From NCBI GenBank assembly GCA_016867725.1, contig VGIX01000003.1, positions 26,866 through 90,865 of the forward strand: a stretch of DNA of 64,000 nt, written 5' to 3'. This stretch comes from Candidatus Effluviviaceae Genus I sp. (GTDB lineage Bacteria > Joyebacterota > Joyebacteria > Joyebacterales > Joyebacteraceae). The notes beneath the pieces were generated by a model. It worked only from the letters and a program-made list of their open reading frames with translations, was not told the DNA's origin and did not search any database. The translations under genes and the position numbers were made by a program. Positions 2,597-60,276 of this stretch are shown in pieces. Numbering within the stretch: position 1 is the first letter of the stretch; every line of letters starts with the position of its first letter.

Positions 2597-3243
2597 GAGA
2601 CTGGGACGCGCTTCGCGCCAGGATGGTCGAGGAGCAGATCGCCGCCCGGGGCATCTCGGACGAGCGGGTGCTCGCGGCCATGCGCGCGGTACCCAGGCAC
2701 CTCTTCGTGGGGCCCGGGTTCGAGGACTCGGCCTACGGCGACCACGCGCTTCCGATCGGGGAGGGGCAGACGATCTCGCAGCCGTACATGGTCGCCCTCA
2801 TGACACAGGAGCTCGCCCTCGACGGCAGCGAGAAGGTGCTGGAGGTCGGGACGGGCTCCGGGTACCAGACGGCCGTGCTCGCGGAACTCGTCGACCGCGT
2901 CGTGAGCGTCGAGCGCGTCGCGTCGCTCGCGCGGCGCGCCCAGGAGACCATCGAGTCCCTGGGCATCGCGAACGTCATCGTCCACATCGGCGACGGGACC
3001 ATCGGGCTTTCGGAGTTCGCGCCGTACGACCGCATCCTCGTGACGGCGGGCGCGCCCGAGGTGCCGCAGAGCCTGCTCGAGCAGCTCGCCGACCCCGGGA
3101 TCATCGTGATCCCCGTCGGCGGCCAGGGCTTCCAGGAGCTCAGGGTGATCCGCCGCCGCGCCGGCTCGCTCTCGGAGCGCAACGCGGGCGGCTGCGTGTT
3201 CGTGCCGCTCCTCGGCCGTGAGGGCTGGGGCGCGGCGAGATAG
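2593..3243 (+). CDS. pcm: protein-L-isoaspartate O-methyltransferase
   Basis: TISQPYMVA and VLEVGTGSGYQTAVLA SAM motifs; GTGA overlap with surE. Confidence 0.88.
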   Translation: MRDWDALRARMVEEQIAARGISDERVLAAMRAVPRHLFVGPGFEDSAYGDHALPIGEGQTISQPYMVALMTQELALDGSEKVLEVGTGSGYQTAVLAELVDRVVSVERVASLARRAQETIESLGIANVIVHIGDGTIGLSEFAPYDRILVTAGAPEVPQSLLEQLADPGIIVIPVGGQGFQELRVIRRRAGSLSERNAGGCVFVPLLGREGWGAAR

Positions 3244-3776: not shown

Positions 3777-3854
<78 letters not shown>

Positions 3855-5700: not shown

Positions 5701-5777
5701 GCCCCCGTAGCTCAGGTGGATAGAGCAACGGTTTCCTAAACCGTGTGCCGCAGGTTCAAGTCCTGCCGGGGGTACCA
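5701..5777 (+). tRNA. tRNA-Arg (anticodon CCT)
   Basis: Cloverleaf with anticodon loop UUCCUAA; GCTCAGGTGGATAGAGC D-arm; TTCAAGT T-loop; CCA encoded. Confidence 0.75.
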
Positions 5778-5939: not shown

Positions 5940-8465
5940 CTACCTCACGAGCGCCATCCGGCCGACCTCGGTCACGTCGCCCGCGCGGAGGCGGCAGAAG
6001 TAGACGCCCGACGCGGCGTCGGCGCCGGAGGCGTCCTGCCCGTCCCACGACACGGCATGCTCGCCGGCGCCCAGCTCACCGTCCACGAGCTGCCGCACGA
6101 GCCTCCCGGCCACGTCGTAGATCGCGAGGTCGACGTGACCCCGCGAAGGCAGCGCGAACCGCACCGACGTCCGCGGGCTGAACGGGTTCGGGTAGTTGGG
6201 CGTGAGGAGGAGGCGCGGGGCCGCGGGGCCTTCAGCCACGCTGCTCTGGCTCTCCTCGATCCCCCAGATCTCAACGTCGTCGATGTTCCAGCCGCAGTAC
6301 CGCCAGCTCGAGTCGGTCGTCCCCATCGTCCACCTGAGATAGACCGTCTCCTGCCCGTCGGCAACGGCTGAGATGTCGATCTCCTGCAGCGACCAGGCGG
6401 TCTCCGCGATGGTCCCGCCGTTCTGCCACACGGTCGTGAAGTTCGTGCCGTCGTTGCTGACCCTCACGTACGCGTGATCGTAGATGCTCTGCTCCACGCC
6501 GAGCCAGCGGCGGAACTTGAGCGTCACCGACGACAGAGCGGAGCAGTCGATGGCGGTGGACGTGAGGTGGCGTTCCGGCAGGTTGTTCTCGTAGTCGCCG
6601 CTCAGGTTGTAGCCGTACACGTTCGTGCCGGTGTAGCCGCTCATCGGATCCGGCCCGCCGTACTGGCCGCCGCCGCCGGTCGGCCTCCCGTAGGCCCAGA
6701 GACCCTGCGTCGTCCAGCCCGGGTCCAAGTCCATCGAGAAGCTGTGCACGAGCGTCGGCGCCCCGACGGTCAGAGTGACGCCCCTCGAGGTGTCGCCCAC
6801 GTGGTCCGTCGTGTTGATGAACTGAACGAGGTCGGTGTACGTGCCGTTCCCGAGCGTGTTGGCCGCCGCGTTGATGGACACCGTGACGTCCGCGGTCGCG
6901 TGGCCCTCGAGGTGCCCCGACGCGCTCGAGAGCGTGACCCACGGCTGCGTCTTCGTCACCGCGTAGTCGATGCGGGTGTCGTACTGGTTCTCCAGCGTGT
7001 ACGTCACGCTGGACGGGGTGAAGGGGCCGCCGGCATCGCCTGCCGCGGCGAGGCCTGAGGACGGCGTCACCTTGAGCCCCGCCGCGTTCGGGTCATAGAG
7101 GTCCGTCGTGGTCGCTCCCGTGCTCGCGGGGTCAAGCCAGTTCGACAGGCGGGTCGAGCTCGTGCCGCCGCCGGTCCAGGACAACGAGAAGCTGCCGTAC
7201 CAGTCGGAGGAGTTGTTGCCGCACGCCGCGTAGCCGCCGTGCAGCTGGCCGATGACGCGGTGGTTCTGGTCGAACAGCGGGCTTCCCGACGACCCGGGCT
7301 CCGTCGTGCCCTCGTCCCAGTCCACAACGCGAACGTGCGAGCCGTCACCCGGCGACGAGGTCCCGAGGTAGCTCGTGATCTGCGTCGGGTCGTTCTCGAA
7401 GCTGATGCACTTCACGCCGGTGTCGGGGTGGTGGATGGCCGTGGCGGTGGCCGCGACCGCTCCCGTCCTGTCCCAGCCCGCGAACGTGACGCCCCACGAC
7501 GGGTTCGGGTCCTCGTCGAGCTCCACGAGGGTGAAGTCCGAGTTGGAGTAGGAGGCCCTGAAGTACGAGCCCGTCTGGGAGCTCGACAGCGAGCCCCCGC
7601 TCAGCTGCCCGCACACCGGGCTCTGGTAGTTCCAGTACACGACGAGCGAGGCGGCGTTGCTGGACGTGACCCCGCAGTGCCTGGCCGTCATGAAGTAGGG
7701 CACGCCGTTCGACGAGGTGTTGTTCACCATGAAGCCGGTGCAGAAGAGCGAGCCGCCGGTCGAGATGACGCCCACGGAGCGGATGTCATCCCGCCAGCGA
7801 TCGCCCTGCGGGCAGATCACGTCGATGTTGCACGAGCCCGGAGCGCGGGACAGCAGCTCGCCGAAGCCCCGGTATCCCACGTTGACCGACGTGAGCGTCA
7901 GGGCGAGGGCCGGGACGGCCTTGGTCGGCACGGTCGCCTCGATCACGATGTCGTCCGAGAGGACGACCGGCGTCCACAGCTCGCCGTGCTCCGCGTTGTC
8001 GGCCGCCGTGAACGGCCTGAGGACCTCGCCCATGTCCGCGGCGTAGACCATGAGCCTGCCGCCCTCGGGCATGCGGTAGGTCGTGAAGCCCAGGTTGAGC
8101 GACAGGGCGCCGGGGGAGGTGATGCGCAGGCGCCAGAGGCTCACGCCTCCGTCGAGCTCCTCCCACGACCCGTGGGTCGCCGGGGTCATCGAGACGGGGT
8201 GGGGAACCGCGTACCGCGGCGCCAGACCCTGCCGGTCGCGCTCCTCGTCCTCGATGGCGAGGGCGTCGCGATCGAGCGGGGCGATGGACAGCTGCTCGAC
8301 GGACTCGAGCGCCGCCACGGGGAAGTCCGCCGCAGTGGGGGAGACCGGCTCGGAGGCGCCGTGCGCCACGCGGGGGAGGACAAGGACGGTGACGGCCAGA
8401 ACAGAGGCCAGAACGGCCACGGGACACAGGCTTCGACGGCTGCTCACGGCGATTCCTCCTGCCAT
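5940..8465 (-). CDS. secreted trypsin-like (S1) serine endopeptidase with a pro-region, a MAM/lectin-like middle domain and a C-terminal Por_Secre_tail/FlgD-Ig-like sorting domain
   Basis: Signal peptide MAGGIAVSSRRSLCPVAVLASVLAVTVLVLPRVAHGA; catalytic motifs TARHC and GSSGSP; C-terminal NYPNPFSP...IYDVAGRLVR...WDG...SGVYFCRL. The 1119-aa ORF is over-extended, so the start was placed at the Met of the signal peptide (8465). Confidence 0.75.
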   Translation of the reverse strand: MAGGIAVSSRRSLCPVAVLASVLAVTVLVLPRVAHGASEPVSPTAADFPVAALESVEQLSIAPLDRDALAIEDEERDRQGLAPRYAVPHPVSMTPATHGSWEELDGGVSLWRLRITSPGALSLNLGFTTYRMPEGGRLMVYAADMGEVLRPFTAADNAEHGELWTPVVLSDDIVIEATVPTKAVPALALTLTSVNVGYRGFGELLSRAPGSCNIDVICPQGDRWRDDIRSVGVISTGGSLFCTGFMVNNTSSNGVPYFMTARHCGVTSSNAASLVVYWNYQSPVCGQLSGGSLSSSQTGSYFRASYSNSDFTLVELDEDPNPSWGVTFAGWDRTGAVAATATAIHHPDTGVKCISFENDPTQITSYLGTSSPGDGSHVRVVDWDEGTTEPGSSGSPLFDQNHRVIGQLHGGYAACGNNSSDWYGSFSLSWTGGGTSSTRLSNWLDPASTGATTTDLYDPNAAGLKVTPSSGLAAAGDAGGPFTPSSVTYTLENQYDTRIDYAVTKTQPWVTLSSASGHLEGHATADVTVSINAAANTLGNGTYTDLVQFINTTDHVGDTSRGVTLTVGAPTLVHSFSMDLDPGWTTQGLWAYGRPTGGGGQYGGPDPMSGYTGTNVYGYNLSGDYENNLPERHLTSTAIDCSALSSVTLKFRRWLGVEQSIYDHAYVRVSNDGTNFTTVWQNGGTIAETAWSLQEIDISAVADGQETVYLRWTMGTTDSSWRYCGWNIDDVEIWGIEESQSSVAEGPAAPRLLLTPNYPNPFSPRTSVRFALPSRGHVDLAIYDVAGRLVRQLVDGELGAGEHAVSWDGQDASGADAASGVYFCRLRAGDVTEVGRMALVR

Positions 8466-8660
8466 CCGCGGAACCGAGACGGAGCGTCCGGCAGGCCGCG
8501 GCGCGCCGACCGGACGTGAACCGGCTTCTCCAGACAATGTTACCAGATTGGGCGCGCCGCGTCCAGAGCCGGTCCGGCCGCATGCGGCGGACCACGCGCG
8601 CGCGGCGGCGCCGTCCCCGCTCCTTGACCGCCGCCGCGACTTCTGCGAGACTCGCGCTCC

Positions 8661-9356
8661 ATGGACGCCCTGAACGCGCGCAGCACGCCCGCGCCGCTCT
8701 CGCCGAGCGGCGCGACGACGCGATGGGAGCGGATCGGCGGTGCGTTCTTCCGGGCGCGGAGCGTCACGCCGATCGGCATCCTCGCGGCCGCGCTGCTCTG
8801 GCCGACGCCGGGAGGCCTGACGGCCGCGAGGCTCGCCGGGGCGGCCGCGCTGCTCGTCGCGGGCGAGGCGCTGCGCCTGTGGGCCGTAGGGGTGGCGGGG
8901 AAGCTCACGAGGACGAGAGGCTCCAACGTGAAGGGGCTCGTCACGTCGGGCCCCTTCGGCTTCGTGCGAAACCCGCTCTACCTGGGCAACTTCGCCATCG
9001 CGGGCGGCGTCGCCGTGCTCTCGAAGGTCGGGTGGCTCCTGTGGGCGATGCCGCTCCTCTTCGCCCTCCAGTACGCGGCCATCGTCGCCTGGGAGGAGCG
9101 CGTCCTCGCTCAGGCGTTCGGCGAGGCGTACGACGACTACCGGCGGGGCGTGAGGCGCTGGGTGCCGTCGCCGCGGCGGTACCGCGGCGCGGCCGGCCCG
9201 GCGTGGGCGGCCGGCATCGCGTGGAGGAGCGAGCGCGACACCCTCGTCGGCCTCGCCGCCGTCGTCGCGCTGTTGGTCGTGAAACACCTCGCAGCGCACG
9301 GGAGCATCGCCGCGTTCTGGCTGGGCGCGGCGCGGGCACTGGGGATGGCACGGTGA
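8661..9356 (+). CDS. isoprenylcysteine carboxyl methyltransferase (ICMT/PEMT) family membrane methyltransferase
   Basis: Multi-TM protein with the NPLYLG and EE..L motifs of the ICMT family. Confidence 0.65.
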   Translation: MDALNARSTPAPLSPSGATTRWERIGGAFFRARSVTPIGILAAALLWPTPGGLTAARLAGAAALLVAGEALRLWAVGVAGKLTRTRGSNVKGLVTSGPFGFVRNPLYLGNFAIAGGVAVLSKVGWLLWAMPLLFALQYAAIVAWEERVLAQAFGEAYDDYRRGVRRWVPSPRRYRGAAGPAWAAGIAWRSERDTLVGLAAVVALLVVKHLAAHGSIAAFWLGAARALGMAR

Positions 9357-9406
9357 AGGTCCGGGCGGCGCGAGCCCGGCAGCAAGCGACAGGGAGGAGG
9401 ACCAGG

Positions 9407-9754
9407 ATGAAGTCAGCGCCGAAGTCCGAGCGGGTTCCCGCGCCGGTGACGATGCCGGGCGCGGAGGGCGTCAAGGCGGCGAAGCTCATCGGAGCGGACG
9501 AGAAGTCGCCGACGGTGGGCATGCGGCTCTTCGAGATCGCCCCCGGTGGGAAGACCCCGTGGCACGCCCACGGCTGGGAGCACGTGATCTACGGCGTCGA
9601 GGGGCAGGGGGCGCTCAAGACGGAGCACGGGGACGCGCCGTTCGGGCCGGGCGACTCCCTGCTCGTTGAGCCGGACGAGCAGCACAACTTCGTGAACACC
9701 GGGACGGGCACGCTGCGGTTCATCTGCGTCGTCCCACTGCGCGGAGACATGTAG
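9407..9754 (+). CDS. cupin-domain protein
   Basis: G(X)5HXH(X)nE...H cupin motifs (PWHAHGWEHVIYGVEG ... EQHNFVNTG); strong RBS AGGGAGGAGG. Confidence 0.7.
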   Translation: MKSAPKSERVPAPVTMPGAEGVKAAKLIGADEKSPTVGMRLFEIAPGGKTPWHAHGWEHVIYGVEGQGALKTEHGDAPFGPGDSLLVEPDEQHNFVNTGTGTLRFICVVPLRGDM

Positions 9755-30474: not shown

Positions 30475-32099
30475 ACGCTGCGCCGGCCGGGACCGTGGAC
30501 TGGCGTCAGGTGAGGGCGCTCGTGGTGGCCGCGGTGAAGTGCGACCTCCGCACGTCGCGCGGCGGATACGGCAGCCACCGGGTCCCGCCTCTGATCCTGG
30601 CGCTCGCCGTCTACCTCCTGATGGGCACCTTCCTGTCGCTCGCGGTCCTCGCCGCGCGGGACCCGTTCGTCATCGCCCTCTTCACGCTGTCCGCCGCGCT
30701 CTTCATGACGGCACTCTCCGTCATCATGGACCACGGGATCGTGGTCGTGAGCCCGGAGGACTACGACGTCATCTCCTTCAGACCCGTCTCCTCCAGGACG
30801 TACTTCTGGGCCAAGATGGGGAACCTCCTCTTCTACACCGGAGCGACGGCGACGGCGCTCGCAGGGCCGACGGCGGTGATGGGGAGCCTCGCGCTGCCCG
30901 GCGGCGCGCGGTTCGGCTTCTCGTACCTCGCGCTGGCGCTTCTCGGGTGCACCGCGGCCGCGGCGTTCATCGTCGTCGCGTATTCCGCGGCCCTCAAGGT
31001 CGTGAGCTACGGCCGTCTCACCGCGGCGATGACGTACGTGCACATGGGGGCGACGCTCGTCCTCACGCTCGGTTACGTGTTCCTGCCGCAGCTCGTCGGA
31101 AGGGATGTCGGGCTCCTAGCGGTCCGGCGAGGCGCGTGGATGTACTGGGCGCCGCCGGCGTGGTTCGCCGGTGGCGTGGGACTCCTGTCCGGCGGGGGAG
31201 TGGCTGGGGACGGCGCGCTGCTCGCCCTCGCGCTCGCGTCCTCCGCGCTTGCGTTCGCCGCCGCGTCGCGGACGGTCTCGAACGACTACTCGCGGAGGAT
31301 CAGCGAGCTCGCGCTCGAGGCCCCGCCCGCGCAGTCCGGCCGCGGAGGGCTCGCGCGCGCGACCTCCTGGCTGTCCGCGTACGGCCTCGTCTTCTGTCGC
31401 TCGAGCGCGGAGAGGGCCGGGTACGAGCTCATGCGGGCGTACATGACACGAGACAGAAAACTGCGCTCGCGGATCTACCCGGCGTTCGGGCTGCCGCTCG
31501 CCGCGTACGTGTACGGCCTGGCGAGCGGGTCCTTCCGCACGCCGCCCTCCGGAGCCGAGCGCATGGACGTGCTCACGATCCTCGGGCTCTACTGCGTGTT
31601 CGTCAGCTTCTTCTTCACGTCGGCCATGGGGATGTCCGAGCACTGGCGCGCGAGCTGGGTGTTCCACGCGGCGCCGCTCAGGAGACGCTCCGAGCTGCTC
31701 GTCGGCGCGAGGAAGCTGGTGCTGCTGGGGTACATCCTGCCGTTCTTCGCGCTGCTGTTCCTGCTGCTCGCGGCGGCGATGCCGCTCCGGGCGCTGGCGC
31801 CCTACTGGGCGCTGGTGCTCCTGTCGTCGCTGCTCGCGTTCGCGCTGCTCTCGTTCGGCGCGCCGCATCATCCGCTCTCGCAGTCGGTCGAGCGGGCCAG
31901 TCGCACGGCGCAGCTCGGGCTCATCGTCGTGTTCGGCGCGCTCATGGCGGTCATCGCGGCGGCGAGACGGGCGATGACGGAGACGCCGCTGGCCGGGGTC
32001 ATCGTGCTGGCCGTCTTCGCGCTCGCGGTCGTGGGAGCCGAAGCGGTGCTGCGCGGCAGACTCGAGAAACGGCTTGCGGAGCAGGAGTTCCTCGGCTAG
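30471..32099 (+). CDS. ABC transporter permease, large multi-TM (542 aa)
   Basis: About 10-12 predicted TM segments; GTGA overlap with the ATPase. Confidence 0.6.
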   Translation: MNAAPAGTVDWRQVRALVVAAVKCDLRTSRGGYGSHRVPPLILALAVYLLMGTFLSLAVLAARDPFVIALFTLSAALFMTALSVIMDHGIVVVSPEDYDVISFRPVSSRTYFWAKMGNLLFYTGATATALAGPTAVMGSLALPGGARFGFSYLALALLGCTAAAAFIVVAYSAALKVVSYGRLTAAMTYVHMGATLVLTLGYVFLPQLVGRDVGLLAVRRGAWMYWAPPAWFAGGVGLLSGGGVAGDGALLALALASSALAFAAASRTVSNDYSRRISELALEAPPAQSGRGGLARATSWLSAYGLVFCRSSAERAGYELMRAYMTRDRKLRSRIYPAFGLPLAAYVYGLASGSFRTPPSGAERMDVLTILGLYCVFVSFFFTSAMGMSEHWRASWVFHAAPLRRRSELLVGARKLVLLGYILPFFALLFLLLAAAMPLRALAPYWALVLLSSLLAFALLSFGAPHHPLSQSVERASRTAQLGLIVVFGALMAVIAAARRAMTETPLAGVIVLAVFALAVVGAEAVLRGRLEKRLAEQEFLG

Positions 32100-32184
32100 C
32101 TTGTCTCTGGTGCTGGGGGGGACGGAGGCCCCGCGCAGCATCTAGCCGCCCGGGATCGCGACGGACTCAACAGAAAGGACCACG

Positions 32185-32397
32185 ATGCCCGACACGGTGA
32201 CGAAGAGCATGTCGATCGGTGAGATCGTCCAGAAGCACCCGGAGACCGTCCCGGTGTTCATGAAGCACGGGCTGCACTGCCTGGGCTGCGCGATCGCCTC
32301 GTTCGAGTCGCTCGAGCAGGGAGCTCAGGCCCATGGAATCGATGCGGATGCTCTGGTGAAGGGACTCAACGAAGCGATCGTGGGCGACGGCAAGTAG
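32185..32397 (+). CDS. DUF1858-domain protein (hybrid-cluster-protein-associated redox disulfide domain)
   Basis: MSIGEIV..HPETVPVF..HGLHCLGC pattern recalled for DUF1858/TIGR03980. Confidence 0.55.
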   Translation: MPDTVTKSMSIGEIVQKHPETVPVFMKHGLHCLGCAIASFESLEQGAQAHGIDADALVKGLNEAIVGDGK

Positions 32398-32414
32398 CGG
32401 AGGGGGAGACGGCG

Positions 32415-32696
32415 ATGAAGCTGGACGACTTCAAGGTCTGGATCGACGAGCACGAAGGCTGGGAGTACGAGGCCGACGACCGCGGGCTCCTGGTCCGCAA
32501 TGCCGACCTCGGGACGGCCACGCACTGCACGTTCGAGGCGATCGAGAAGAACCCGATCGAGACCATCACCTCGGCCTGCACGCAGGGCCGCGACGTGGAC
32601 CACATCACGCGCGTGACGGGGTACTTCTCGAAGACGAGCGGATGGAACAAGGGCAAGACCGCGGAGCTCCGGGACCGTCACAGAAGCGACGTCTAG
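32415..32696 (+). CDS. small protein (93 aa) carrying an anaerobic-RNR (NrdD)-type glycyl-radical C-terminal motif
   Basis: C-terminal [25 protein letters not shown] resembles the NrdD glycyl-radical loop (R-x-x-G-Y ... (F/W)N-x-GK-x-x-E); strong RBS GGAGGGGGAG. Confidence 0.5.
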
Positions 32697-32709
32697 CGGC
32701 GCCGCCGCA

Positions 32710-32910
32710 GTGACCGCGCGTTGCGGGAACCGCGAGCGGAACCTGGCCGGCTGCAACTGCTCATACGAGCCGTGCAGCCGCAAGGGCGTCTGCTGCGAGT
32801 GCATCATGTATCACCGGAACGCCGGCGAGCTTCCGGCGTGCTTCTTCGAGGACCGCGTTGAGCGGACGTACGACCGCGCCATCGCGCGTTTCGTGAGAGA
32901 GAACTCCTGA
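32710..32910 (+). CDS. 8-cysteine mini-protein (66 aa), probable metal- or cluster-binding
   Basis: CX9CXCX4CX5CCXCX12C spacing; GC3-rich codon usage supports coding; GTG start with a weak RBS. Confidence 0.4.
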
Positions 32911-32915
32911 GATCC

Positions 32916-33281
32916 GTGAGGGGGGAGGGCTCTCTGGCGCCCAGGATCGAGCACTACAGCTTCGGACGGGTCACGATCGACGGGAAGATCTACACCGCCG
33001 ACGTGGTCGTTCTGCCCGGACGCGTCATCGCCGGCTGGTGGAGGAAGGACGGACACCGGCTGGCGCCGGAGGACGTCGAGGACGTCCTGGCGGCGCGGCC
33101 GGCCTGTCTCGTCATCGGAACGGGAGCGTCGGGTCTCATGGAGGTCCCGCCGGAGACGACCGCGCTCCTCGAGGGCCGCGGCATCAGCGTCATCGTCAAG
33201 CCCACGGCCGAGGCCGTCGAGACCTACAACCGCCTCCGGGGAGACGGCCGGACGGCGGCCTGCCTGCATCTGACCTGCTAG
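32916..33281 (+). CDS. Mth938-like domain protein (DUF498/COG1504)
   Basis: HYSFGRVTIDGKIY.DVVVLPG ... LVIGTGASG ... VIVKPTAEAVETYN ... HLTC matches the Mth938-like family from start to the C-terminal HLTC. Confidence 0.65.
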   Translation: MRGEGSLAPRIEHYSFGRVTIDGKIYTADVVVLPGRVIAGWWRKDGHRLAPEDVEDVLAARPACLVIGTGASGLMEVPPETTALLEGRGISVIVKPTAEAVETYNRLRGDGRTAACLHLTC

Positions 33282-33356
33282 ACCACCTCGACGATCGACC
33301 TGCCTCGCGTCGCCCCGCGGACCGCTGGGAGCGCCGTCGGCGCCGCCATTGCGTCA

Positions 33357-33386
33357 TTGACGGCCTGACCCGACCTGTGCTATGAT
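33357..33386 (+). promoter_or_regulatory. strong sigma70-like promoter TTGACG-18-TATGAT preceding a ~230-nt structured leader
   Basis: Hexamers read directly; downstream hairpins include CGGCAG...CTGCCG, CGCGCC...GGCGCG and CACGA-ggag-TCGTG immediately before the RBS AAGGGAGGG. Confidence 0.5.
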
Positions 33387-33619
33387 GATTGTCGTGTGAG
33401 TCCATGTTGTGTCGGCAGCGGCGGTTCGCGCCGACTGCCGGTCGGTTGTGGGTGTTCTGGAGACACGGTGCCGGTCCGAGGGGCCGGAAGGGCATTTCTG
33501 CCGGAGGGAGGTGATTGGGAAGTCGATTCTCGGGTAGCGGGCCGCGCCTCACTCCGGGCGCGACCCAGCCAGTCCGTAGAAGTCCTGTCACGAGGAGTCG
33601 TGAACCAAGGGAGGGATCT

Positions 33620-34336
33620 ATGAGGACCCTGTTCGTTATCGCGGCCGCTCTGCTCTGCGTGACTCCGGCGTTCGCCACGGTGCACAACTACAGCTGGGAG
33701 AACGGCGGCACCGTCCTCGCCACCTACGGAGCCAACTGCGTCGGCATCGCGAACGTGTGCGGCCCGCAGAGCGGCATCTACGGCACAGGCAGCTCGGCGC
33801 CCGGTGGCTCCGCGGGCTTCACCGTCCCCGGCGCCTGCCAGGGCAACTGCTACCTGCACGTCGCCGAGGACCCGCACACCGGGACGCCGTCCGTCGTCGT
33901 GGCGTGGATCAAGGGGCTCCAGATCGGTGACACGATCTTCGCCAACATCTGCCTGTACGACCCCTTCGAGGGCAGCTCCACGTTCCCGGGCATGAGGATC
34001 TGGGGCGCCTACACCTCCTGCACCGACCCGTCCGTGTACGAGGCGCCGGCCACGAACCCGTCGACCTACACCAACGGCAACCCCGCCTCGTGGAACACCG
34101 GGACCCCGGCCACGTCGTGGACCTGGACGTACAACGACGCCACGGACCCGACGGGCTGCTTCCGCATCGAGGTGCGCTTCTACAGCACGCCGCCGACGGC
34201 CAACCCTCAGCACACGGACTTCTTCGTCGACAACGTCACCGTCGAGGTCCCGAGCTACTGCGAAGTGATCTTCCCGCAGGGCCAGTCGCCGGTCGAGAGC
34301 AGCACGTGGGGCGTCATCAAGGCCCTGTATAGGTAG
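33620..34336 (+). CDS. secreted Cys-rich protein of unknown function
   Basis: Signal peptide MRTLFVIAAALLCVTPAFA; 12 Cys; Thr/Pro/Gly-rich; own promoter and terminator. Confidence 0.55.
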   Translation: MRTLFVIAAALLCVTPAFATVHNYSWENGGTVLATYGANCVGIANVCGPQSGIYGTGSSAPGGSAGFTVPGACQGNCYLHVAEDPHTGTPSVVVAWIKGLQIGDTIFANICLYDPFEGSSTFPGMRIWGAYTSCTDPSVYEAPATNPSTYTNGNPASWNTGTPATSWTWTYNDATDPTGCFRIEVRFYSTPPTANPQHTDFFVDNVTVEVPSYCEVIFPQGQSPVESSTWGVIKALYR

Positions 34337-34391
34337 GCCCAGGCGGCGCCGGCGGAGGATCTGCGCCGGACGCGCATCGAGGAGACGCAGG

Positions 34392-34421
34392 GGCCCCGTC
34401 GAAAGGCGGGGCCTCCTGTTT
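34392..34421 (+). terminator. intrinsic terminator-like hairpin GGCCCCG-tcgaaagg-CGGGGCC followed by UCCUGUUU
   Basis: 7-bp GC stem plus a U-containing tail directly after the secreted-protein stop. Confidence 0.5.
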
Positions 34422-34437
34422 GGGGAAGCCGGCCGCC

Positions 34438-34466
34438 TTGACACCCCCGCGCGGGCGTGCTAGGCT
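34438..34466 (+). promoter_or_regulatory. sigma70-like promoter TTGACA-17-TAGGCT
   Basis: Perfect -35 hexamer and a 17-nt spacer, upstream of the TPR membrane-protein gene. Confidence 0.5.
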
Positions 34467-34529
34467 CCCGACACCAGAAGGAGCAGCATCGCACCGGCCC
34501 CGAAGGCCCCCGAACCGGGGGAGGGGCCG

Positions 34530-35255
34530 GTGCGAGCACACGGACCGACCCGGGAGGACACGTTGGGGAAGCGCACGCGCGTCACGAAGAAGGCCCTCAA
34601 GCACGACGCCTTCGTCGACACCACGGCGAAGGGCACGAAGTTCATCGAGGAGCACATCAACCGGATCCTCATCGGCGCCGTCGTGCTCGTCGTGGCTGTC
34701 GGGGTGGTGTTCCTCGTGGTGCGCGGCCAGCGCAACGCCGCGCGGCAGGCCAGCGCGCTTCTCTCCGTCGCCACGGAGTCCCTCAGCTCGGGGCTTCTTG
34801 CCCAGGCCTCAGACCAGTTCACGGGCCTCATCGAGCAGTATCCCGGCACCAGAGCCGCCGGGGCGGCCACGTGCTATCTCGGCACGATCAGGTTCCACGA
34901 GAAGGACTTCGACGGCGCGCTCCAGCACTTCCAGACCTATCTCGACCGATACCGCAACCCCGGCAATCTCCGCAACCTCGCGCTCACCGGCAAGGCCTCC
35001 ATCCTCGAGCACCGCCGCGAGTTCGCGGCCGCCGCCGACGCCTATCTCGCCATCGCCGCAGATGCAGGGGACCAGCACGCCACGGCCGCCCTCAACCTCA
35101 TGAACGCCGTGCGCTGCTACCGCGCCCTGCAGGACTGGCAGAGCATGAAGGGCACCGCCGAGCGCGTCGTCCGCGACTATCCCGACACGCCGTCGGCAGG
35201 CGATGCCCGCATCGCTCTCGCCGAAGCGTCCGGCCTCCTTGGACCACAGCCGTAG
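34530..35255 (+). CDS. membrane-anchored TPR-like protein (YbgF/DUF-like)
   Basis: One N-terminal TM helix, then TPR-like helical repeats; GTG start with RBS GGGGGAGGGG. Confidence 0.5.
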   Translation: MRAHGPTREDTLGKRTRVTKKALKHDAFVDTTAKGTKFIEEHINRILIGAVVLVVAVGVVFLVVRGQRNAARQASALLSVATESLSSGLLAQASDQFTGLIEQYPGTRAAGAATCYLGTIRFHEKDFDGALQHFQTYLDRYRNPGNLRNLALTGKASILEHRREFAAAADAYLAIAADAGDQHATAALNLMNAVRCYRALQDWQSMKGTAERVVRDYPDTPSAGDARIALAEASGLLGPQP

Positions 35256-35475
35256 GGCACCAGGGCACCCCGAACACTCCGAGGTCCGGCTGTCCCGCCG
35301 CGCAGGTTCTCGGTCTTGCCTGTCTGTCGCATAATCCGCATTATGTAAACTATCGCACGGAGGCCTCGAGCCCGCTGCGACAGCAGCGGACACCCGACAG
35401 CGGCGCCCCGCTGCCGCGCCGCTCCCCCGCGCGTCGCGGGCGGCATCGGCGAACGGGAGCGCGTCCCGGGTGGCC

Positions 35476-37968
35476 CTACTGCTTCACGACGAGATTGAGC
35501 AGGCGGTCCTGCACGTAGATGACCCGAGCGAGGGACGGCTGATCGAGGTACTTGCTGAGCTTGTCGTTCCGGCGAGCCAGCTCGAGCACGTCGTCCTGGG
35601 AGGACCCGCGGATCGCCTCGACCTGCCCGCGCAGCTTGCCGTTGACCTGGACCGCGATGGTCGCCGTGTCATCCGTGGCCGCGGCCTCGTTCCACACCGG
35701 CCAGGGCCCTCTGAAGATGGACGTCACGCCGCCGGCGCGCTGCCAGAGCTCCTCGCCGAGGTGCGGGACCATCGGCGCGAGCAGCACCACGAGGCTGCGC
35801 ACGGCCTCGCCGATCACGGCGCGCTCGACGGGCGCCGGCGCGCGCCCTCCGAGCCCCTCCGCGAAGGACCTGGCGGCGTTCGCGAGCTCCATGACGGCGG
35901 CGACCGCCGTGTTGAAGCGGAACCCCTCGAAGTCGCGCGTGACCTTCCTGAGGGTCTGGTGGGTCTTCCTGTGCAGCGCCTCGACGCCGGCGGTCAGCTC
36001 CTGTCCCGCCAGCGCGGCGCCGTAGTCCGCGCGCGGATCGAACGGCCACTCCTCGGCCAGCGACCACACGCGGTTGAGGAACCTGTGGCACCCGTCGACC
36101 GACGCATCGGACCACTCCGCGTCCCGGTCCGGCGGGCCGATGAACAGCGTGTAGAGGCGTTCGGTGTCGGCGCCGTAGGCCGCGATGAGCTCGTCGGGCG
36201 GCACGACGTTGCCCTTCGACTTGGACATCTTCGAGCCGTCCTTGTAGATCATCCCCTGCGTGAAAAGCCGCTCGATCGGCTCGTCGAAGCCCAGAAGCCC
36301 CATGTCGTGCAGCGCCTTGGTCATGAACCTGACGAAGATCAGGTGCCCGCACGCGTGCTCCACGCCTCCTATGTACTGGTCCACCGGAAGCCACCGGTTG
36401 ACGTCCTCGCTCACGAACGGGGCGCGCTCCTCCCGAGGCGAGATGTACCGGAAGAGGTACCAGCTCGAGTCCATGAACGTGTCGATCGTGTCCGTCTCTC
36501 GCCGCCCCTGCCCCCCGCACCTCGGACACACAGCCGCCATGAAGGTCGGCGACGTCGAGAGGGGCGACTCGCCCTTGCCGGTGAGCCGGATGTCGGTCGG
36601 GAGCACCACAGGCAGATCGCGCTCCGGCACCGCCTGGAGTCCGCACCGTTCGCAGTAGATGATCGGGATCGGCGTGCCCCAGTAGCGCTGTCGCGAGATG
36701 AGCCAGTCGCGAAGGCGGTAGCTCACGGCGCGTCGCCCCGTCCCGTTCGCCTGCATCCAGTCGGCGATCCGCTCCATGCCCTCGCGGTTCGGCATCCCGT
36801 TGAACTCGCCCGAGCCGGTCAGGACCCCGTCCTCCACGTACGCCCCGTCCATGGCGTCCGGGGTGAGGCCTCCGGTCGGCCTATCGATGACGACGCGCAC
36901 GGGCAGCCCGTAGCGCCTGGCGAACTCGAAGTCCCGCTGGTCGTGCGCCGGGACCGCCATCACCGCGCCCGTCCCGTACTCCATCAGCACGTAGTTGGCC
37001 ACCCACACGGGAACCCGCTCGCCGGTGGCGGGGTTCACGACGTGCTTCCCGGTCCACATCCCTTCCTTCTCGACGTCGGCGGAGCTGCGCTCCAGCGTGC
37101 TCTGCCGCTTCGCGCGCTCTGCGAACGCCGCGACCTCGGTCTCTCTGCCTGTCCCCTCCGCCAGCGTCTGAAGCATGGGATGCTCCGGAGCGATGACCAT
37201 GTAGGTCACGCCGAAGACCGTGTCGGCTCGCGTCGTGAAGCACGGCAGCCGCTCACCCGTCTCCGGAACCCGGAAGTCGATTTCCACTCCCTCGCTTCGC
37301 CCGATCCAATGACGCTGCATCGCGCGCACGCGCTCCGGCCAGCCGCCCAGCCTGTCGAGCCCATCGAGCAGCCGATCGGCGTAGGCCGTGATCCGGAAGA
37401 ACCACTGCTCCAGGTCGCGCACGCCGACGGCCGTCTCGCAGCGCTCGCACTTCCCGCTGACGACCTGCTCGTTGGCGAGCACGGTCGCGCACGAGGGGCA
37501 CCAGTTCACTGGCGCCGACTTCCTGTAGGCGAGGTCACGCTCGAAGAGCTTCGTGAAGATCCACTGCGTCCACCGGTAGAAGCGCGGGTCGTGCGACGCG
37601 ATCTCGCGAGACCAGTCGTACCCTATCCCCCACCTGCGGAACTGCACCTTCATCTTGGCGATGTTCGCGTCCGTCCACAGCGCTGGATGGATGCCGCGCT
37701 CGATGGCGGCGTTTTCTGCGGGGAGCCCGAACGCATCCCACCCCATCGGCGAGAGCACCGTCCCCCCGCGCATCATGAGGTGACGGACCAGGGCGTCACC
37801 GATGATGTAGTTCCGCCCGTGCCCGACGTGGAGGTCACCGGACGGGTACGGGTACATCACCAGGCAGTAGAAGCCGCCTTCCGCCTCCGTCGGGCACTCG
37901 AAGAGACGGTCCTGCTCCCAGCGTTCCTGCCACTTCGGCTCGAGCTCTGCGAAGGGGTAGCGCTCCAT
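35476..37968 (-). CDS. leuS: leucine--tRNA ligase
   Basis: HVGHGRNY (HIGH) and KMSKS motifs; 830 aa. Confidence 0.92.
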   Translation of the reverse strand: MERYPFAELEPKWQERWEQDRLFECPTEAEGGFYCLVMYPYPSGDLHVGHGRNYIIGDALVRHLMMRGGTVLSPMGWDAFGLPAENAAIERGIHPALWTDANIAKMKVQFRRWGIGYDWSREIASHDPRFYRWTQWIFTKLFERDLAYRKSAPVNWCPSCATVLANEQVVSGKCERCETAVGVRDLEQWFFRITAYADRLLDGLDRLGGWPERVRAMQRHWIGRSEGVEIDFRVPETGERLPCFTTRADTVFGVTYMVIAPEHPMLQTLAEGTGRETEVAAFAERAKRQSTLERSSADVEKEGMWTGKHVVNPATGERVPVWVANYVLMEYGTGAVMAVPAHDQRDFEFARRYGLPVRVVIDRPTGGLTPDAMDGAYVEDGVLTGSGEFNGMPNREGMERIADWMQANGTGRRAVSYRLRDWLISRQRYWGTPIPIIYCERCGLQAVPERDLPVVLPTDIRLTGKGESPLSTSPTFMAAVCPRCGGQGRRETDTIDTFMDSSWYLFRYISPREERAPFVSEDVNRWLPVDQYIGGVEHACGHLIFVRFMTKALHDMGLLGFDEPIERLFTQGMIYKDGSKMSKSKGNVVPPDELIAAYGADTERLYTLFIGPPDRDAEWSDASVDGCHRFLNRVWSLAEEWPFDPRADYGAALAGQELTAGVEALHRKTHQTLRKVTRDFEGFRFNTAVAAVMELANAARSFAEGLGGRAPAPVERAVIGEAVRSLVVLLAPMVPHLGEELWQRAGGVTSIFRGPWPVWNEAAATDDTATIAVQVNGKLRGQVEAIRGSSQDDVLELARRNDKLSKYLDQPSLARVIYVQDRLLNLVVKQ

Positions 37969-49183: not shown

Positions 49184-49260
49184 TGGCGCGCCCGGAGGGA
49201 CTTGAACCCCCGACACCTGGAACCGGAGTCCAGTGCTCTATCCAACTGAGCTACGGGCGC
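49184..49260 (-). tRNA. tRNA-Arg (anticodon CCG)
   Basis: Reverse-complement cloverleaf GCGCCCG...AGCTCAGTTGGATAGAGC...loop CUCCGGU...TTCAAGT...CGGGCGC-G-CCA. Confidence 0.75.
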
Positions 49261-56467: not shown

Positions 56468-57253
56468 TCACCCGTCGATCACGGACATGACCCTGTGGAT
56501 CCCCGTCGCGGCGCCGCTGGTCTCGTCGGCGTCGACGACGACGCCGCAGAGCACGAGGCGACCGCCGGCCGGCTCAAAGCGCTGCGGGATCTGCGTGAGG
56601 AACCTCGCAAGGGAGAGGTCCCTTCGCATGCCGATCACCGAGTCGTACGGCCCCGTCATCCCCGCGTCCGAGATGGCCGCGGTGAACCCGTCCACGATGC
56701 GCTCGTCCGCCGTCTGCACGTGCGTGTGCGTTCCCAGGACGGCCGTCGCCGCCCCGGCCAGGTGCCACGCCATCGCGACCTTCTCCGACGTCGCCTCCGC
56801 GTGGAGGTCCACCAGCACGACGCGGGCGCGCGTCCGCAGCTCCGCCACGAGCGCGGCGCCCACGCGGAACGGGCAGTCGGTCTCCGGCAGGAACACCCTG
56901 CCCTGCAGGTTCACGACGCCCACGGGAACGCCCTTCGCGGTCTCGAAGACGCCGGCTCCCCGACCGGGGGTGCCCGGGGGGTAGTTGGCCGGCCGGAGGA
57001 TCCGCTCGCAGCCCGCGACCAGCTCCGCGGCACCCTTCTTGTCCCAGATGTGGTTGCCGCTCGTGAGGACGTCGATGCCGAGCGCGAAGAGGTCGTTCGC
57101 CACGGGCTTCGTGAGCCCGATGCCTCCCGCCGCGTTCTCGCCGTTCGCCACGACGAGCGACGGCCCCCACTCCCTCACGAGGCCGGGCAGGAGCAGCTCG
57201 ACGGCGCGCCGCCCGGGCCGCCCGACGACGTCCCCGATGAAGAGGATCCTCAT
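56468..57253 (-). CDS. ymdB: YmdB-like metallophosphoesterase (2',3'-cyclic-nucleotide phosphodiesterase, TIGR00282)
   Basis: MRILFIGDVVGRPGR...ANGENAAGG N-terminus typical of YmdB; located immediately downstream of rny as in Bacillus. Confidence 0.75.
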   Translation of the reverse strand: MRILFIGDVVGRPGRRAVELLLPGLVREWGPSLVVANGENAAGGIGLTKPVANDLFALGIDVLTSGNHIWDKKGAAELVAGCERILRPANYPPGTPGRGAGVFETAKGVPVGVVNLQGRVFLPETDCPFRVGAALVAELRTRARVVLVDLHAEATSEKVAMAWHLAGAATAVLGTHTHVQTADERIVDGFTAAISDAGMTGPYDSVIGMRRDLSLARFLTQIPQRFEPAGGRLVLCGVVVDADETSGAATGIHRVMSVIDG

Positions 57254-57269
57254 GCGCCTTCCCGCCCGG

Positions 57270-58832
57270 CTACTTGGCGTAGTCCACGGCTCTCGACTCG
57301 CGGATCACGACGACCTTGATCTGGCCCGGGTACTTGAGCTCCGCCTCGATCTTCCTCGCCACGGCCGAGGCGAGGGCCTCGGCGCGGGCGTCGTCGATCT
57401 TCTTGTGCTGGACCATGATGCGGATCTCGCGGCCCGCCTGGATCGCGTAGGAGCGCTCGACGCCCTGGAAGGTCCCCGCGATCTGCTCGAGCTTCTCGAG
57501 GCGCTTGATGTAGGTCTCGAGCGTCTCGCGCCGCGCGCCCGGCCTCGCGCCGGACACGGCGTCGGCCGCCTGGACGAGCACGGCGATCATGCTCGTGTGC
57601 TCGACGTCCTCGTGATGGGACTCGATCGAGTTGACGACGACCTCGTCTTCCCCGTACCGGGAGGCCAGCTCCGCGCCGAGCGCGGCGTGCGTCCCCTCCA
57701 TCGTGTGGTCCACGGCCTTGCCGAGGTCGTGGAGGAGCCCCGCGCGCTTGGCCACCGCGACGTCGAGCCCGAGCTCGCCGGCCATGAGACCGGTCAGGTA
57801 GGCGACCTCCTTGGAGTGCTGGAGCACGTTCTGACCGTAGCTCGTCCGGTACCGGAGCTTCCCGAGGAGCTTGATGAGCTCCGGGCGAAGGTCGTGGATG
57901 CCGACGTCCAGGCACGCCTCCTCGCCGGTCTCGGTGATCTTCTGGTCGAGCTCCTTCGTGACCTTCTCGACGACCTCCTCGATCCGCCCCGGGTGGATCC
58001 GCCCGTCCCCGATGAGCCGCTCGAGCGAGAGCCTCGCCACCTCGCGGCGCACGGGATCGAAGCCCGACAGGATCACGGCCTCGGGGGTGTCGTCCACGAT
58101 CACGTCGATGCCGGTCGCGGTCTCGAACGCTCGGATGTTCCTGCCCTCGCGGCCGATGATCCTGCCCTTCATCTCGTCGCTGGGGAGGTTCACCACCGAC
58201 ACGGTGGACTCCACGACGTGGTCGGCGGCGCACCGCTGGATGGCCAGCGTGAGGATCTGCTTCGCCTCCTTGTCGCCCTGCCTCCGCGCGTCGTCCCGGA
58301 TGTCCTTGACCATCCTCGCGGCCTCGAGGCGCGCCTCGCTCTCCATGTTCTTGATGAGCAGCTTCTTCGCGTCGTCGCGGTTCATGCCCGCGATCCGCTC
58401 GAGCCGCTCGTTCTGCTCGTCGATCAGCTTCGAGACCTTCTCGGAACGCTCGACGATCTCCGCTTCCTTCGCGGCCTGCTCGGTCTCCGACCGGGCGAGC
58501 TCCTGTTCCTTCTTGTCGAGGAACTCCACCCTCCTGTTGAGGTCATCCTCCCGCTTCTCCAACTGCCTCTGGAGCTTCTCGAGCTCCGCTCGTGTCGCCT
58601 GCGTGTCTTCCTCGAACCTGGACTTCGCCTTGTACCACTCGTCCTTCGCCTCGAGGATCGCCGCCTTCTTCTGCGTCTCGGCCTCGCGCTGCGCCTCGCG
58701 GACGATCTTCTCGGCCAGTTCCTCGGCGCTCACGATCTTGCTGCGGTCCACGAGCCGTCTGGCGAACCAGCCGGCCACGAACACGGCAACGCCGATCAGG
58801 AACGCAACGACCATGGCTCCCCACTGGCTCAT
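57270..58832 (-). CDS. rny: ribonuclease Y
   Basis: N-terminal TM helix, coiled coil, KH domain ([13 protein letters not shown]) and HD domain (HSKEVA...LLHDLGK); the start is at the Met preceded by GGGAGGGAG. Confidence 0.88.
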
Positions 58833-58893
58833 GCGGTCGTCTCCCTCCCATCTATCGCATTGTGGTCCTGCGCCGATCGGCCGGCCCCCGGCA

Positions 58894-60276
58894 TCACGTG
58901 CCCTCCGGATCCTCGACCGGCGAAGCGGCGTCCCATCGGGACAACCGCTCCCGGACCTCCCTCTCGTACCCCGCATCGCCGGGCGTGTAGAAGCTCCGGC
59001 GCTTCTCGACGTAGTCCTGCCTTCTGCCCTCGGCCTCCGAGCGCGGCATCTCGTACGCGGCCCCCCGCCCCAGCCGCGCGGCTCCCGCGTAGCCCGCGGC
59101 GCGCAGGTGCGCCGGAACCTCCCCCGAGTCCTCCGTCCGGACGGCCTCCTCGGCCGCGGCGATCGCGTCGGCGCACGCCCTGCTCTTGGGCGCCGCCGCG
59201 AGGTAGATCGTCGCCTCGGCGAGCGCGTACCGCGCCTCGGGAAGCCCGAGCATCTCGACGGCCCTGGCCGCCCCGACCGCAAGTCCCAGGGCCCCCGGGT
59301 CGGCAAGCCCCACGTCCTCGGAGGCCAGGATCACGAGCCGCCTCGCGATGAAGCGCGGGTCCTCGCCGCCCTCGAGCATCCTGGCCAGCCAGAAGAGCGC
59401 CGCATCGGGCTGCGAGCCGCGCACGCTCTTGATGAACGCCGACGCCACGTCGTAGTGCGCGTCGCCGTCGCGGTCGTGCCTGATCACGCGGCGCGCGAGA
59501 CACCCCTCGGCCACGGCCAGGCTCACGCGGATGGCGCCGCCTTTGTCCGGCGGCGTCGAGAGCGCCGCGAGTTCGAGCGCCGAGAGGGCCCTCCTCGCGT
59601 CCCCGAGCGCGTTGTCGGCCAGGTGGTCCAGCGCGTCGTCCGCCGCCTCGACGCGGTACTCGCCGAGGCCCCGCTCCCGGTCGGCGAGGGCGGACACCAG
59701 GATCGCCCGCACGTCGTCCCTCGAGAGCGGCCGGAACTCGAACACCTGAACGCGCGACAGGAGCGCCTGGTTCAGGTAGAAGAACGGGTTCTCCACCGTC
59801 GCGCCGATCATGACGAACGCGTCGTCCTCGAGGGGCGCGAGCAGCACGTCCTGCTGGGCCTTGTTGAACCGGTGCACCTCGTCGATGAACACGATCGTCC
59901 GCCGGGGCGAGCGCTGCCGCGCGCCGGTGACGGCGGCCCGCAGATCGGCCACGCCGGCCTCGACCGCGTTGAGCCTCACGAGCGCCGACCCGGTGGCCTC
60001 CGCGATCACGTGGCCGAGGGAGGTCTTGCCGCTCCCAGGAGGGCCGTACAGGATCATCGAGAACAGCCTGTCGGCCTCGATGGCCCTCCGAAGCAGCTTG
60101 CCCGGTCCCAGCACGTGGTCCTGTCCGCGATACTCACCGAGCGCCCGCGGCCGCATCCTCTTCGCGAGAGGCGCGTGCGGGGCTTCGGGAACCGTGAAGA
60201 GGCCCCCCGGCTCAGCGTGGGCATCGCGCAACGCGTTCACCTCGTTCATCCGAACGCGGGACACGGGGCAGGGCAT
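58894..60276 (-). CDS. rarA: replication-associated recombination protein A (AAA+ ATPase MgsA/RarA)
   Basis: Walker [10 protein letters not shown], Walker [12 protein letters not shown] and MgsA C-terminal domains; an alternative start at Met10 is possible. Confidence 0.8.

Follow-up and report, generated by a model that had tools for sequence, protein, structure and literature searches.

The 64,000-nucleotide stretch of contig VGIX01000003.1 analyzed here (the window) belongs to a Candidatus Eisenbacteria-type bacterium and encodes, on its forward strand, a small secreted protein whose gene (the target gene) follows a strong promoter and a long 5' untranslated leader. The interpretation that we favor, and to which we give about an even chance, is a monocistronic high-expression cassette. 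In it, the leader would stabilize the mRNA in the manner of the STAB-SD element of cry3A, and the product would be an exported module resembling a carbohydrate-binding module (CBM), held at the cell surface by its C-terminal tail. Judged from sequence, the most telling element of the locus is an internal box that resembles a Shine-Dalgarno (SD) sequence and appears not to initiate translation. It had been missed in the earlier note on this DNA, which described the promoter, the leader, and the protein.

The box was compared across the upstream regions of 24–26 loci, whose proteins are 85% to ~40% identical to the window protein. In these orthologs it has the form AAGGAGGUG(A/G), usually AAGGAGGUGR, over 9–12 nt, and the version in the window is GGGAGGUGAU. 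Of 26 primary-copy leaders, 24 have the box, between −113 and −186 relative to the ATG, and so do L058, L059, and the first copy of L028. With the canonical 16S 3' tail (expected end ...CACCUCCUU), which is assumed for the host organism, the predicted anti-SD duplexes range from −15.6 to −22.1 kcal/mol across these leaders. The window box paired with GAUCACCUCCUUA gives −19.2 kcal/mol, compared with −16.8 kcal/mol for the real SD. In each leader the box is the strongest predicted 16S-tail site, and wherever it occurs (24 leaders) it surpasses the real SD. The box columns are invariant in alignment A4, and variable box positions keep their pairing by placing A or G opposite U, as read from the alignment. 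No ATG, GTG, or TTG stands at a usable spacing after the box in the 24 leaders, nor do these share a conserved upstream open reading frame (ORF) or reading frame.

Transcription of the leader would begin at a near-consensus sigma70-type promoter. The TTGACG-18-TATGAT promoter named in the earlier note lies where it was placed, matches 10 of 12 hexamer positions, and carries an extended −10 TG. TTGACG-18-TGcTATGAT is the sole sigma70-like site that a promoter scan found within 32000–36000. In a stretch of 71% G+C, the pattern TTGAC-N16-TGnTATRAT has one match in the whole 64 kb, and shuffles give none. More than 20 orthologous Candidatus Eisenbacteria loci keep TTGAC-N17/18-TGnTA(T/C)AAT at 190–370 nt upstream of the ATG, and this conservation holds in loci whose leaders have otherwise diverged past alignment. 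From the end of the −10 hexamer to the ATG is 233 nt, and a transcription start site (TSS) predicted from the promoter would fall near 33393. These distances agree with the leader of ~230 nt proposed earlier, and the long-type leaders of orthologs measure 217–332 nt. The −35 box is abutted, at 33340–33356, by GTTGCGTC. The window shares this sequence with L001 and L011/L012, and L007 and L008 have similar versions; it may act as an UP-like element or bind a regulator.

Contig ends were also tried as a guide to the TSS. The first five short contigs looked transcript-like, with ~220 nt upstream and ~30 nt downstream of the gene. The approach was dropped because eleven more contigs had variable 5' ends and 3' breaks clustered 20–50 nt past the stop. 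Short metagenome contigs (L056–L066 and L069–L073) tend to end 20–50 nt past the stop codon, and these breaks are probably an assembly artefact near GC-rich 3' hairpins.

Four features survive in the aligned leaders: the promoter, a GC-rich hairpin, the internal box, and a hairpin upstream of the real SD. The rest has drifted past alignment, and the only sequence conserved between clades is that of the promoter, of one internal motif, and of the ribosome-binding site (RBS). Alignment of the leader across relatives, which the earlier note had called for, thus reveals a conserved architecture but not a conserved sequence beyond the promoter, box, and RBS. The GC-rich hairpin lies 10–35 nt upstream of the box in all four clades. 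The hairpin CACGA-ggag-TCGTG, previously noticed just upstream of the SD, was located correctly, and 21 of 23 orthologous leaders have a hairpin that ends 0–7 nt before the SD. The stems of these RBS-proximal hairpins differ wholly in sequence (CACGA/UCGUG in the window, GAGGCCGC/GCGGCCUC, GGAGGC/GCCUCC, CCAGCUCC/GGAGCUGG, and others), and the comparison identifies the hairpin as a conserved structural feature. The real SD is itself conserved as TGGAGG(G/A), 6–8 nt before the ATG in orthologs.

The evidence for leader structure is comparative, because the predicted folding energy is no better than that of shuffled sequences. The minimum free energy of the leader is −104 kcal/mol, with a z of −0.22 relative to shuffles, and single-sequence folding energy was therefore dropped as evidence of structure. 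Several GC hairpins, as claimed before, are indeed present, but it is conservation and not stability that speaks for them. A cross-clade consensus of the core (MAFFT and RNAalifold) contains 5 pairs only, 3 of them with compensatory changes, the clades being too divergent for a reliable common alignment. Folds within clades contain 70–75 pairs, of which only 4–5 are compensatory, and the hairpins are kept. A covariance model of the core recovered an ortholog on which it had not been trained at 55 bits and produced no strong off-target in 364 kb; across clades it is weak. One extra match of this model, in L129, was rejected as a false positive inside a cytochrome-like coding region.

Among the alternatives to a stabilizing leader, a regulatory switch survives best, and we consider it unlikely. 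The leader would be a metabolite riboswitch, an RNA thermometer, or the target of a small RNA or protein, and the box and the real SD would vie for an anti-SD-like segment, so that the box gates translation as an anti-anti-SD. Some clades do contain CCUCC-like segments for which both GGAGG elements are possible partners. The hairpin directly next to the SD in clade D is GGAGGC...GCCUCC, and the RNAalifold structure of clade C joins the real SD (UGGAGGG) to a CCUCUCC located 5'. The RBS-proximal hairpin of the window shows a GGA in its loop beside the GGA-containing SD, which resembles a CsrA site. A CsrA-type site was rejected, as orthologs do not keep this GGA loop. More generally, no candidate for an anti-SD partner is kept across clades and the window leader has none, the consensus covariation is weak, and the sequence outside the box drifts freely, unlike that of a ligand aptamer. 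Rfam (Rfam 15) assigned no family to the window leader at E ≤ 10, and six orthologous loci were also without a match at the gathering score. These results, together with the drift in sequence between clades, speak against a ligand-sensing form of the riboregulatory element suggested in the earlier note.

The same anti-SD pairing could instead serve a ribosome standby or loading site, at which the 30S subunit is captured and then passed to the structured real RBS. The box would then raise the initiation rate and not the half-life of the mRNA. Strong pairing in the absence of a start codon is expected here just as it is for a stabilizer, and a stable hairpin does flank the real RBS. Standby sites usually adjoin the RBS, however, while the box is 113–186 nt upstream of the ATG and the intervening sequence is variable and poorly conserved. 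A standby role is thus improbable.

Two further alternatives carry very little weight. That the box is the true RBS of a short leader peptide begun at a non-canonical codon, or of an N-terminally extended 273-aa protein from the open, in-frame TTG at 33515, is highly improbable: L008 also has a TTG abutting the box, but the window TTG comes 1 nt after GGAGGTGA without usable spacing, such a codon occurs in 2 of 24 leaders only, the frame, length, and stops between box and ATG are not conserved, and the extension would bury the signal peptide. Both the upstream ORF and the extension at this TTG were rejected for want of conservation. It is scarcely credible, too, that the promoter drives a separate small RNA of ~120–150 nt while the protein gene has its own unrecognized promoter nearer the ATG; the 5' half of the leader, from promoter to box, is the better conserved, but a scan detected no second promoter-like site between box and ATG, the box is not followed by a hairpin and T-run of the terminator kind, Rfam gave no small-RNA match, and orthologs with a short leader have the same promoter type directly before the gene.

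The view of the target gene as a cassette draws on its surroundings as well as on its leader. The gene is read as monocistronic because the downstream gene has its own promoter, and the CTTGACA...GTGCTAG of that promoter recurs at the same place in L008, L009, L012, L018, and L028. At the 3' end, the hairpins fold at −57 kcal/mol (z = −3.5 relative to shuffles), and a hairpin is kept 50–80 nt past the stop in 19 orthologous loci, with T-runs of 5–6 U in the lower-GC orthologs. The clean intrinsic terminator reported earlier is therefore a strong and conserved hairpin, but "clean" overstates it, as the second hairpin is followed only by CCTGTTTGG, with just UUU for a U-tract, and a consensus terminator scan gave no call. 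The sequence comparisons support an independent unit with its own strong promoter, long leader, and terminator-like hairpin, all three kept across orthologous loci, as the earlier description of an independently regulated gene had it. Many Eisenbacteria loci contain tandem paralogs of the target gene, each copy with its own promoter (L015 2051–2812, L017 3878–4654, L021, L025, L026, and L028 1944–2669). Codon preference, as C3/(C3+G3), is 0.64 in the target gene, the highest value, versus 0.47–0.56 in the other window genes compared. This preference for C-ending codons is weak evidence of high expression. The fixed genomic position across the phylum, the tandem paralogs, the leader, and the codon bias point to an abundant envelope protein, and the target is probably one of the most abundant in Eisenbacteria.

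The protein has the length and features expected of a secreted product, as first described: 238 aa, a textbook Sec signal peptide (MRTLFVIAAALLCVTPAFA|T, residues 1–19, nt 33620–33676), a composition rich in Thr, Pro, and Gly (T 28, G 24, P 20, with S 18), and the C-terminus ...WGVIKALYR. The figure of 12 Cys was incorrect, as the translation contains 9, 8 of them in the mature protein. The absence of a recognizable domain holds at the level of sequence. Pfam and NCBIfam (E ≤ 1) gave no family for the protein, a PDB sequence search gave no match even with a profile of 64 sequences, and the domain belongs by sequence to no Pfam or CAZy CBM family. It does not hold for structure, as AlphaFold2 (64-sequence alignment; pLDDT 89, pTM 0.84) confidently predicts a CBM-like beta-sandwich with a short C-terminal helix over ...STWGVIKALY. 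Foldseek matched this model throughout to jelly rolls that bind sugars or ligands, namely CBM4, CBM22, CBM27, the K1/K2 adhesin domains of gingipain, and the ligand-binding domain of the ephrin receptor. Aromatic and polar side chains make up the invariant positions (W26, Y78, H80, E83, R126, Y150, W158, R186, Y188, D200, and D204), a set that looks like a glycan-binding cleft. The protein is thus modeled as a single CBM-like beta-sandwich that probably binds glycans or surfaces.

A direct search of 5.8 billion proteins returned only eight relatives of the target, and a profile of those eight gave 363 matches, nearly all of them "hypothetical proteins" of 220–235 aa. The named source organisms among these matches are Candidatus Eisenbacteria, and close relatives are found in metagenome-assembled genomes (MAGs) of Eisenbacteria among species-representative genomes. 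The orthologs compared share 85% to 44% identity with the target. Exhaustive phmmer searching produced 175 representative clusters, some with large proteins in which the central domain occurs between one and four times. In such large homologs it stands beside dockerin, LTD (lamin-tail), and Big_9 domains, and one of these proteins has a CBM_4_9 match below threshold over the same region. Relatives at 30–40% identity come from Phycisphaerae, Verrucomicrobia, Victivallales, Fibrobacteraceae, Neomarinimicrobiota, and one Flavobacteriales MAG.

These distant homologs bear directly on the C-terminal tail, which is invariant in the family. In Phycisphaerae and Verrucomicrobia, full ORFs have the same domain followed by ...PEP-hydrophobic-RRR, and in Neomarinimicrobiota and the Flavobacteriales MAG the domain is followed by extra domains and then by ...YPNPFNP.... 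NCBIfam recognizes these endings as PEP-CTERM (TIGR02595; 23.7 bits, cut-off 16) and as the type A sorting domain of the type IX secretion system (T9SS) (TIGR04183; 40.2 bits, cut-off 23). The target protein matches neither TIGR02595 nor TIGR04183 (NCBIfam, E ≤ 1). Its tail occupies exactly the place of the PEP-CTERM signal or the T9SS C-terminal domain (CTD), as does the variant SW..VKAL[FY]Q-stop of Fibrobacteraceae. A surface-sorted protein therefore fits better than the "extracellular factor" of the earlier note.

The tail is also found on other proteins. Metagenome contigs were scanned for DNA encoding W-x-x-I-K-A-L-Y-R-stop, which gave at least 119 loci and at least 128 ORFs with this ending; among the matches listed (L074–L192), 1 is related to the target domain and 127 are unrelated. 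The 118 ORFs of at least 100 aa among these matches fall into at least 51 BLAST clusters, and by a simple heuristic test 39 of 51 cluster representatives have a signal peptide, most of the others being 5'-truncated. Positions outside the search pattern are conserved too, again among the matches listed: [TS] at 67%, P at 61%, V at 64%, E at 50%, and x-x-[ST] before the Trp at 96%. The proteins that carry the tail include POMP-repeat and parallel beta-helix proteins and one NHL propeller that is closest to ScyF, which in cyanobacteria carries PEP-CTERM. The tail itself lies outside every Pfam or NCBIfam model, both in the target and in the cluster representatives, and a literature search for the tail string gave nothing relevant. 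A profile of the 40-aa C-terminus found 11 candidates in a large protein database, all short fragments.

By the operational definition applied to earlier sorting signals, the tail is a candidate sorting or anchoring signal. It would be used by Eisenbacteria and relatives, with the VKAL[FY]Q variant in Fibrobacteraceae, and has no predicted transmembrane segment. Its layout appears to combine a PVE signature, a short amphipathic stretch, and a terminal Arg, which loosely echoes PEP-CTERM without the membrane-spanning segment. The signal is considered distinct from T9SS because the same genome encodes a 1176-aa protease with a T9SS-type CTD. A bolder proposal, plausible yet tentative, is that the 16-residue [TS]-P-V-E-x-x-[ST]-W-G-x-I-K-A-L-Y-R-COOH is an undescribed sorting or anchoring signal of uncultured FCB-group bacteria, shared by at least 51 unrelated secreted families. 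The target would then be its flagship and most highly expressed cargo, equipped with the first STAB-SD-like stabilizer outside Firmicutes. A variant of the tail was seen once elsewhere: at L017 4664–4912, after the second paralog, an 83-codon ORF has a lipobox-like LAAAAC and ends in ...LSWAAIKALFQP.

In the favored interpretation, these parts would work together as follows. The strong extended −10 sigma70 promoter would produce an mRNA with a leader of ~227 nt that stabilizes the message and supports expression, with no sensing of a ligand. The core of the leader would be the GC hairpin followed by the SD-like box, which lacks a start codon and would bind the 16S 3' tail more tightly than the real SD does. 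A 30S subunit parked on the box would shield the downstream mRNA from decay that depends on the 5' end, as the STAB-SD of cry3A does. The message would be further protected by the hairpin upstream of the real SD and, at its other end, by the GC-rich hairpin of the 3' region. The product, a single CBM-like beta-sandwich that probably binds a glycan or a surface, would be exported by Sec, and the tail SPVExSTWGxIKALYR-COOH would deliver it to the cell surface or hold it there. We infer the binding of 30S, the stabilization, the high expression, the ligand, and the role of the tail from the features described above. The genes for RNase Y, the endonuclease of the Bacillus-type mRNA decay pathway, and its partner YmdB adjoin each other in the window and point to a decay system of that type in this diderm candidate phylum.

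Several observations count against this interpretation. The TSS is a prediction, on which the contig ends were uninformative. The box lies ~110–140 nt from the predicted 5' end and not at the 5' end, so a STAB-SD-like role needs 5' processing (as in cry3A) or protection from an endonuclease. The 16S tail behind the duplex energies is an assumed one, the predicted accessibility of the box is mixed (unpaired probability 0.02–0.87), and in L001 the predicted partner of the box is a neighboring CUCCC. The Bacillus-type decay system is a putative one, read from RNase Y and YmdB. High expression is deduced from the design of the unit and a mild codon bias. For the protein, Foldseek matches to the PDB are weak (E = 2e-4 to 1e-3, probability 1.0, TM 0.32–0.53). 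Finally, an ortholog subfamily and tandem second copies have leaders of ~165 nt without the box.

This short leader type has the same promoter type and an RBS-proximal hairpin and lacks the decoy SD (L011–L013, the second copy of L028 at 2812–3003, and L067–L070). The motif CGCCGGAGTGCACGCGGCG is common to distant loci with short leaders. In L021, L025, L026, and L028, the long leader with the decoy SD is on the first copy only, and the second copies in L015 and L017 have an SD-like CGGAGGTGAGGAAT ~45 nt upstream of the ATG. Since short-leader orthologs and second copies do without the box, the family as a whole does not depend on it. Among 65 other genes that carry the tail and have enough upstream sequence, a promoter-like site is combined with an internal SD-like box in one only, which sets the target gene apart.

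Should the decoy SD act as suggested here, protection of mRNA 5' regions by ribosomes would be known not only in Firmicutes but also in a candidate diderm phylum with RNase Y, and the leader would be a compact and portable expression element. The tail may be the larger prize. It is short, lacks a transmembrane segment, occurs in dozens of unrelated secreted families, and is absent from Pfam and NCBIfam, which makes a search for its machinery testable. The protein family has hundreds of members, none annotated, and would be a handle for metaproteomics and for what Eisenbacteria, which are common in soils and sediments, bind. The Eisenbacteria metaproteomics literature that was searched has nothing on the target protein.

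Table 1. Positions in the window of the target locus and of other features named in the text.
Feature	Position	Strand	Details
Sigma70-type promoter	33357-33386	+	−35 TTGACG 33357-33362; 18-nt spacer; extended −10 TG 33378-33379; −10 TATGAT 33381-33386
Predicted 5' untranslated leader	33393-33619	+	~227 nt, if the TSS is near 33393
Two small hairpins upstream of the decoy SD	33470-33502	+	GCCGGTC-CGAG-GGGCCGG 33470-33487; GGCA-TTTC-TGCC 33491-33502
Putative internal non-initiating super SD, GGAGGGAGGTGAT	33503-33515	+	Core GGGAGGUGAU 33506-33515, complementary to the canonical 16S 3' tail
RBS-proximal hairpin, TCACGA-GGAG-TCGTGA	33588-33603	+	From sequence, folding, and ortholog comparison
Functional SD, AAGGGAGGG	33607-33615	+	4 nt before the ATG at 33620
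Target ORF	33620-34336	+	238 aa; Sec signal peptide, beta-sandwich domain, C-terminal tail
C-terminal tail, SPVESSTWGVIKALYR-COOH	34286-34333	+	Candidate sorting/anchoring signal; AlphaFold2 helix at residues 227-237
3' untranslated hairpins	34341-34422	+	First ~34341-34375; second, terminator-like GGGGCCCCG-TCGAAAGG-CGGGGCC ~34388-34418, then CCTGTTT
Separate promoter of the downstream gene	34438-34466	+	TTGACA-N17-TGcTAGGCT, TG before the −10
TPR_21/YfgM-like membrane-anchored TPR protein	34530-35255	+	PF09976, 36 bits (cut-off 25.5); weak BamD/YbgF similarity
T9SS-type cargo	5943-9470	-	1176 aa; trypsin-like peptidase domain; C-terminal FlgD_ig/T9SS type A-like sorting domain; ...NYPNPFSP...
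YmdB	56471-57304	-	Adjoins RNase Y
RNase Y	57273-59330	-	RNase_Y_N, KH, and HD domain matches
tRNA genes	72-146, 3777-3851, 5701-5774	+	Rfam gathering score
tRNA gene	49187-49260	-	Rfam gathering score

The wider window is of the housekeeping kind that the earlier note had described, with genes for purine and pyrimidine synthesis, aminoacyl-tRNA synthetases, Dxs, FolD, and RNase Y. Its only Rfam matches at the gathering score are the four tRNA genes. Every Eisenbacteria locus that is long enough has a conserved block consisting of DUF1858, a 93-aa protein resembling the NrdD C-terminus, DUF6485, DUF498, the target gene in one or two copies, and the TPR_21/YfgM-like gene (DUF6485 and DUF498 not in all loci). 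The gene for leucyl-tRNA synthetase closes the block in the window and in L028. The TPR_21/YfgM-like gene follows the target in all Eisenbacteria loci long enough, even where the upstream neighbors differ (L012), and it is speculative that its product is a partner of the tail or the target. In the window, the small-gene cluster at 32185–33281 comprises the DUF1858, 93-aa, DUF6485, and DUF498 proteins, DUF1858 being a redox disulfide domain associated with the hybrid-cluster protein. The match of the 93-aa protein to NrdD, the glycyl-radical enzyme of anaerobic ribonucleotide reduction, is confined to the C-terminus of the latter; the protein contains RVTGYF and might be a free-standing glycyl-radical module.

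Comparison with known systems begins with the tail. LPXTG, PEP-CTERM, and T9SS CTD signals were later linked to dedicated machinery for secretion or attachment, and we know of no processing enzyme for the tail described here. As in the "choice-of-anchor" domains of PEP-CTERM and T9SS proteins, the same N-terminal domain is followed by a sorting signal at the same place; unlike those families, the target domain matches no described one. The tail also resembles these systems in its presence on NHL, beta-helix, and POMP-repeat proteins, which bear known sorting signals in other lineages. It differs in being ~16 residues long, in lacking a transmembrane helix and an Ig-like domain, and in ending with ...IKALYR-COOH.

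The domain itself shares with CBM4, CBM22, CBM27, and the gingipain K1/K2 cleaved-adhesin domains a predicted beta-sandwich jelly-roll fold and aromatic and polar invariant residues. Like them, it occurs in multidomain surface proteins with dockerin and LTD. It has no relationship to these domains at the sequence level, and the TM values are only 0.3–0.5.

The closest parallel to the leader is the STAB-SD of Bacillus thuringiensis cry3A (Agaisse and Lereclus, 1996; reviewed in PMC4113751). There, a non-initiating SD near the 5' end of the −129 transcript binds 16S rRNA and blocks the 5'-3' exonuclease RNase J1 (Mathy et al., 2007; reviewed in PMC4113751). Both leaders have an SD-like box in a long 5' untranslated region more than 100 nt from the start codon, near −129 in cry3A and at −113 to −186 here. 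In both, the box is complementary to the 16S 3' end and does not start translation (in silico here), and the gene is very highly expressed, or presumably so in the present case. The host here also resembles Bacillus in having the decay enzyme RNase Y. It differs in belonging to an uncultured diderm phylum of the FCB group. The box is longer here, with up to 12 nt of complementarity, and is preceded by a conserved GC hairpin. The 5' end of cry3A is a processed one, whereas the present leader is known from its sequence alone.

Stabilizing 5' untranslated regions are also familiar from the mRNAs of abundant envelope proteins, such as the hairpins of E. coli ompA and the long leaders of S-layer genes. 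In common with these, the target locus has a long leader with hairpins, one of them near the RBS; it is likewise monocistronic, ends in a strong terminator-like hairpin, and encodes an exported protein that would also be abundant. To our knowledge, a decoy SD is absent from the ompA and S-layer leaders. RNase E is the enzyme that the ompA leader counters, while the genome considered here encodes RNase Y.

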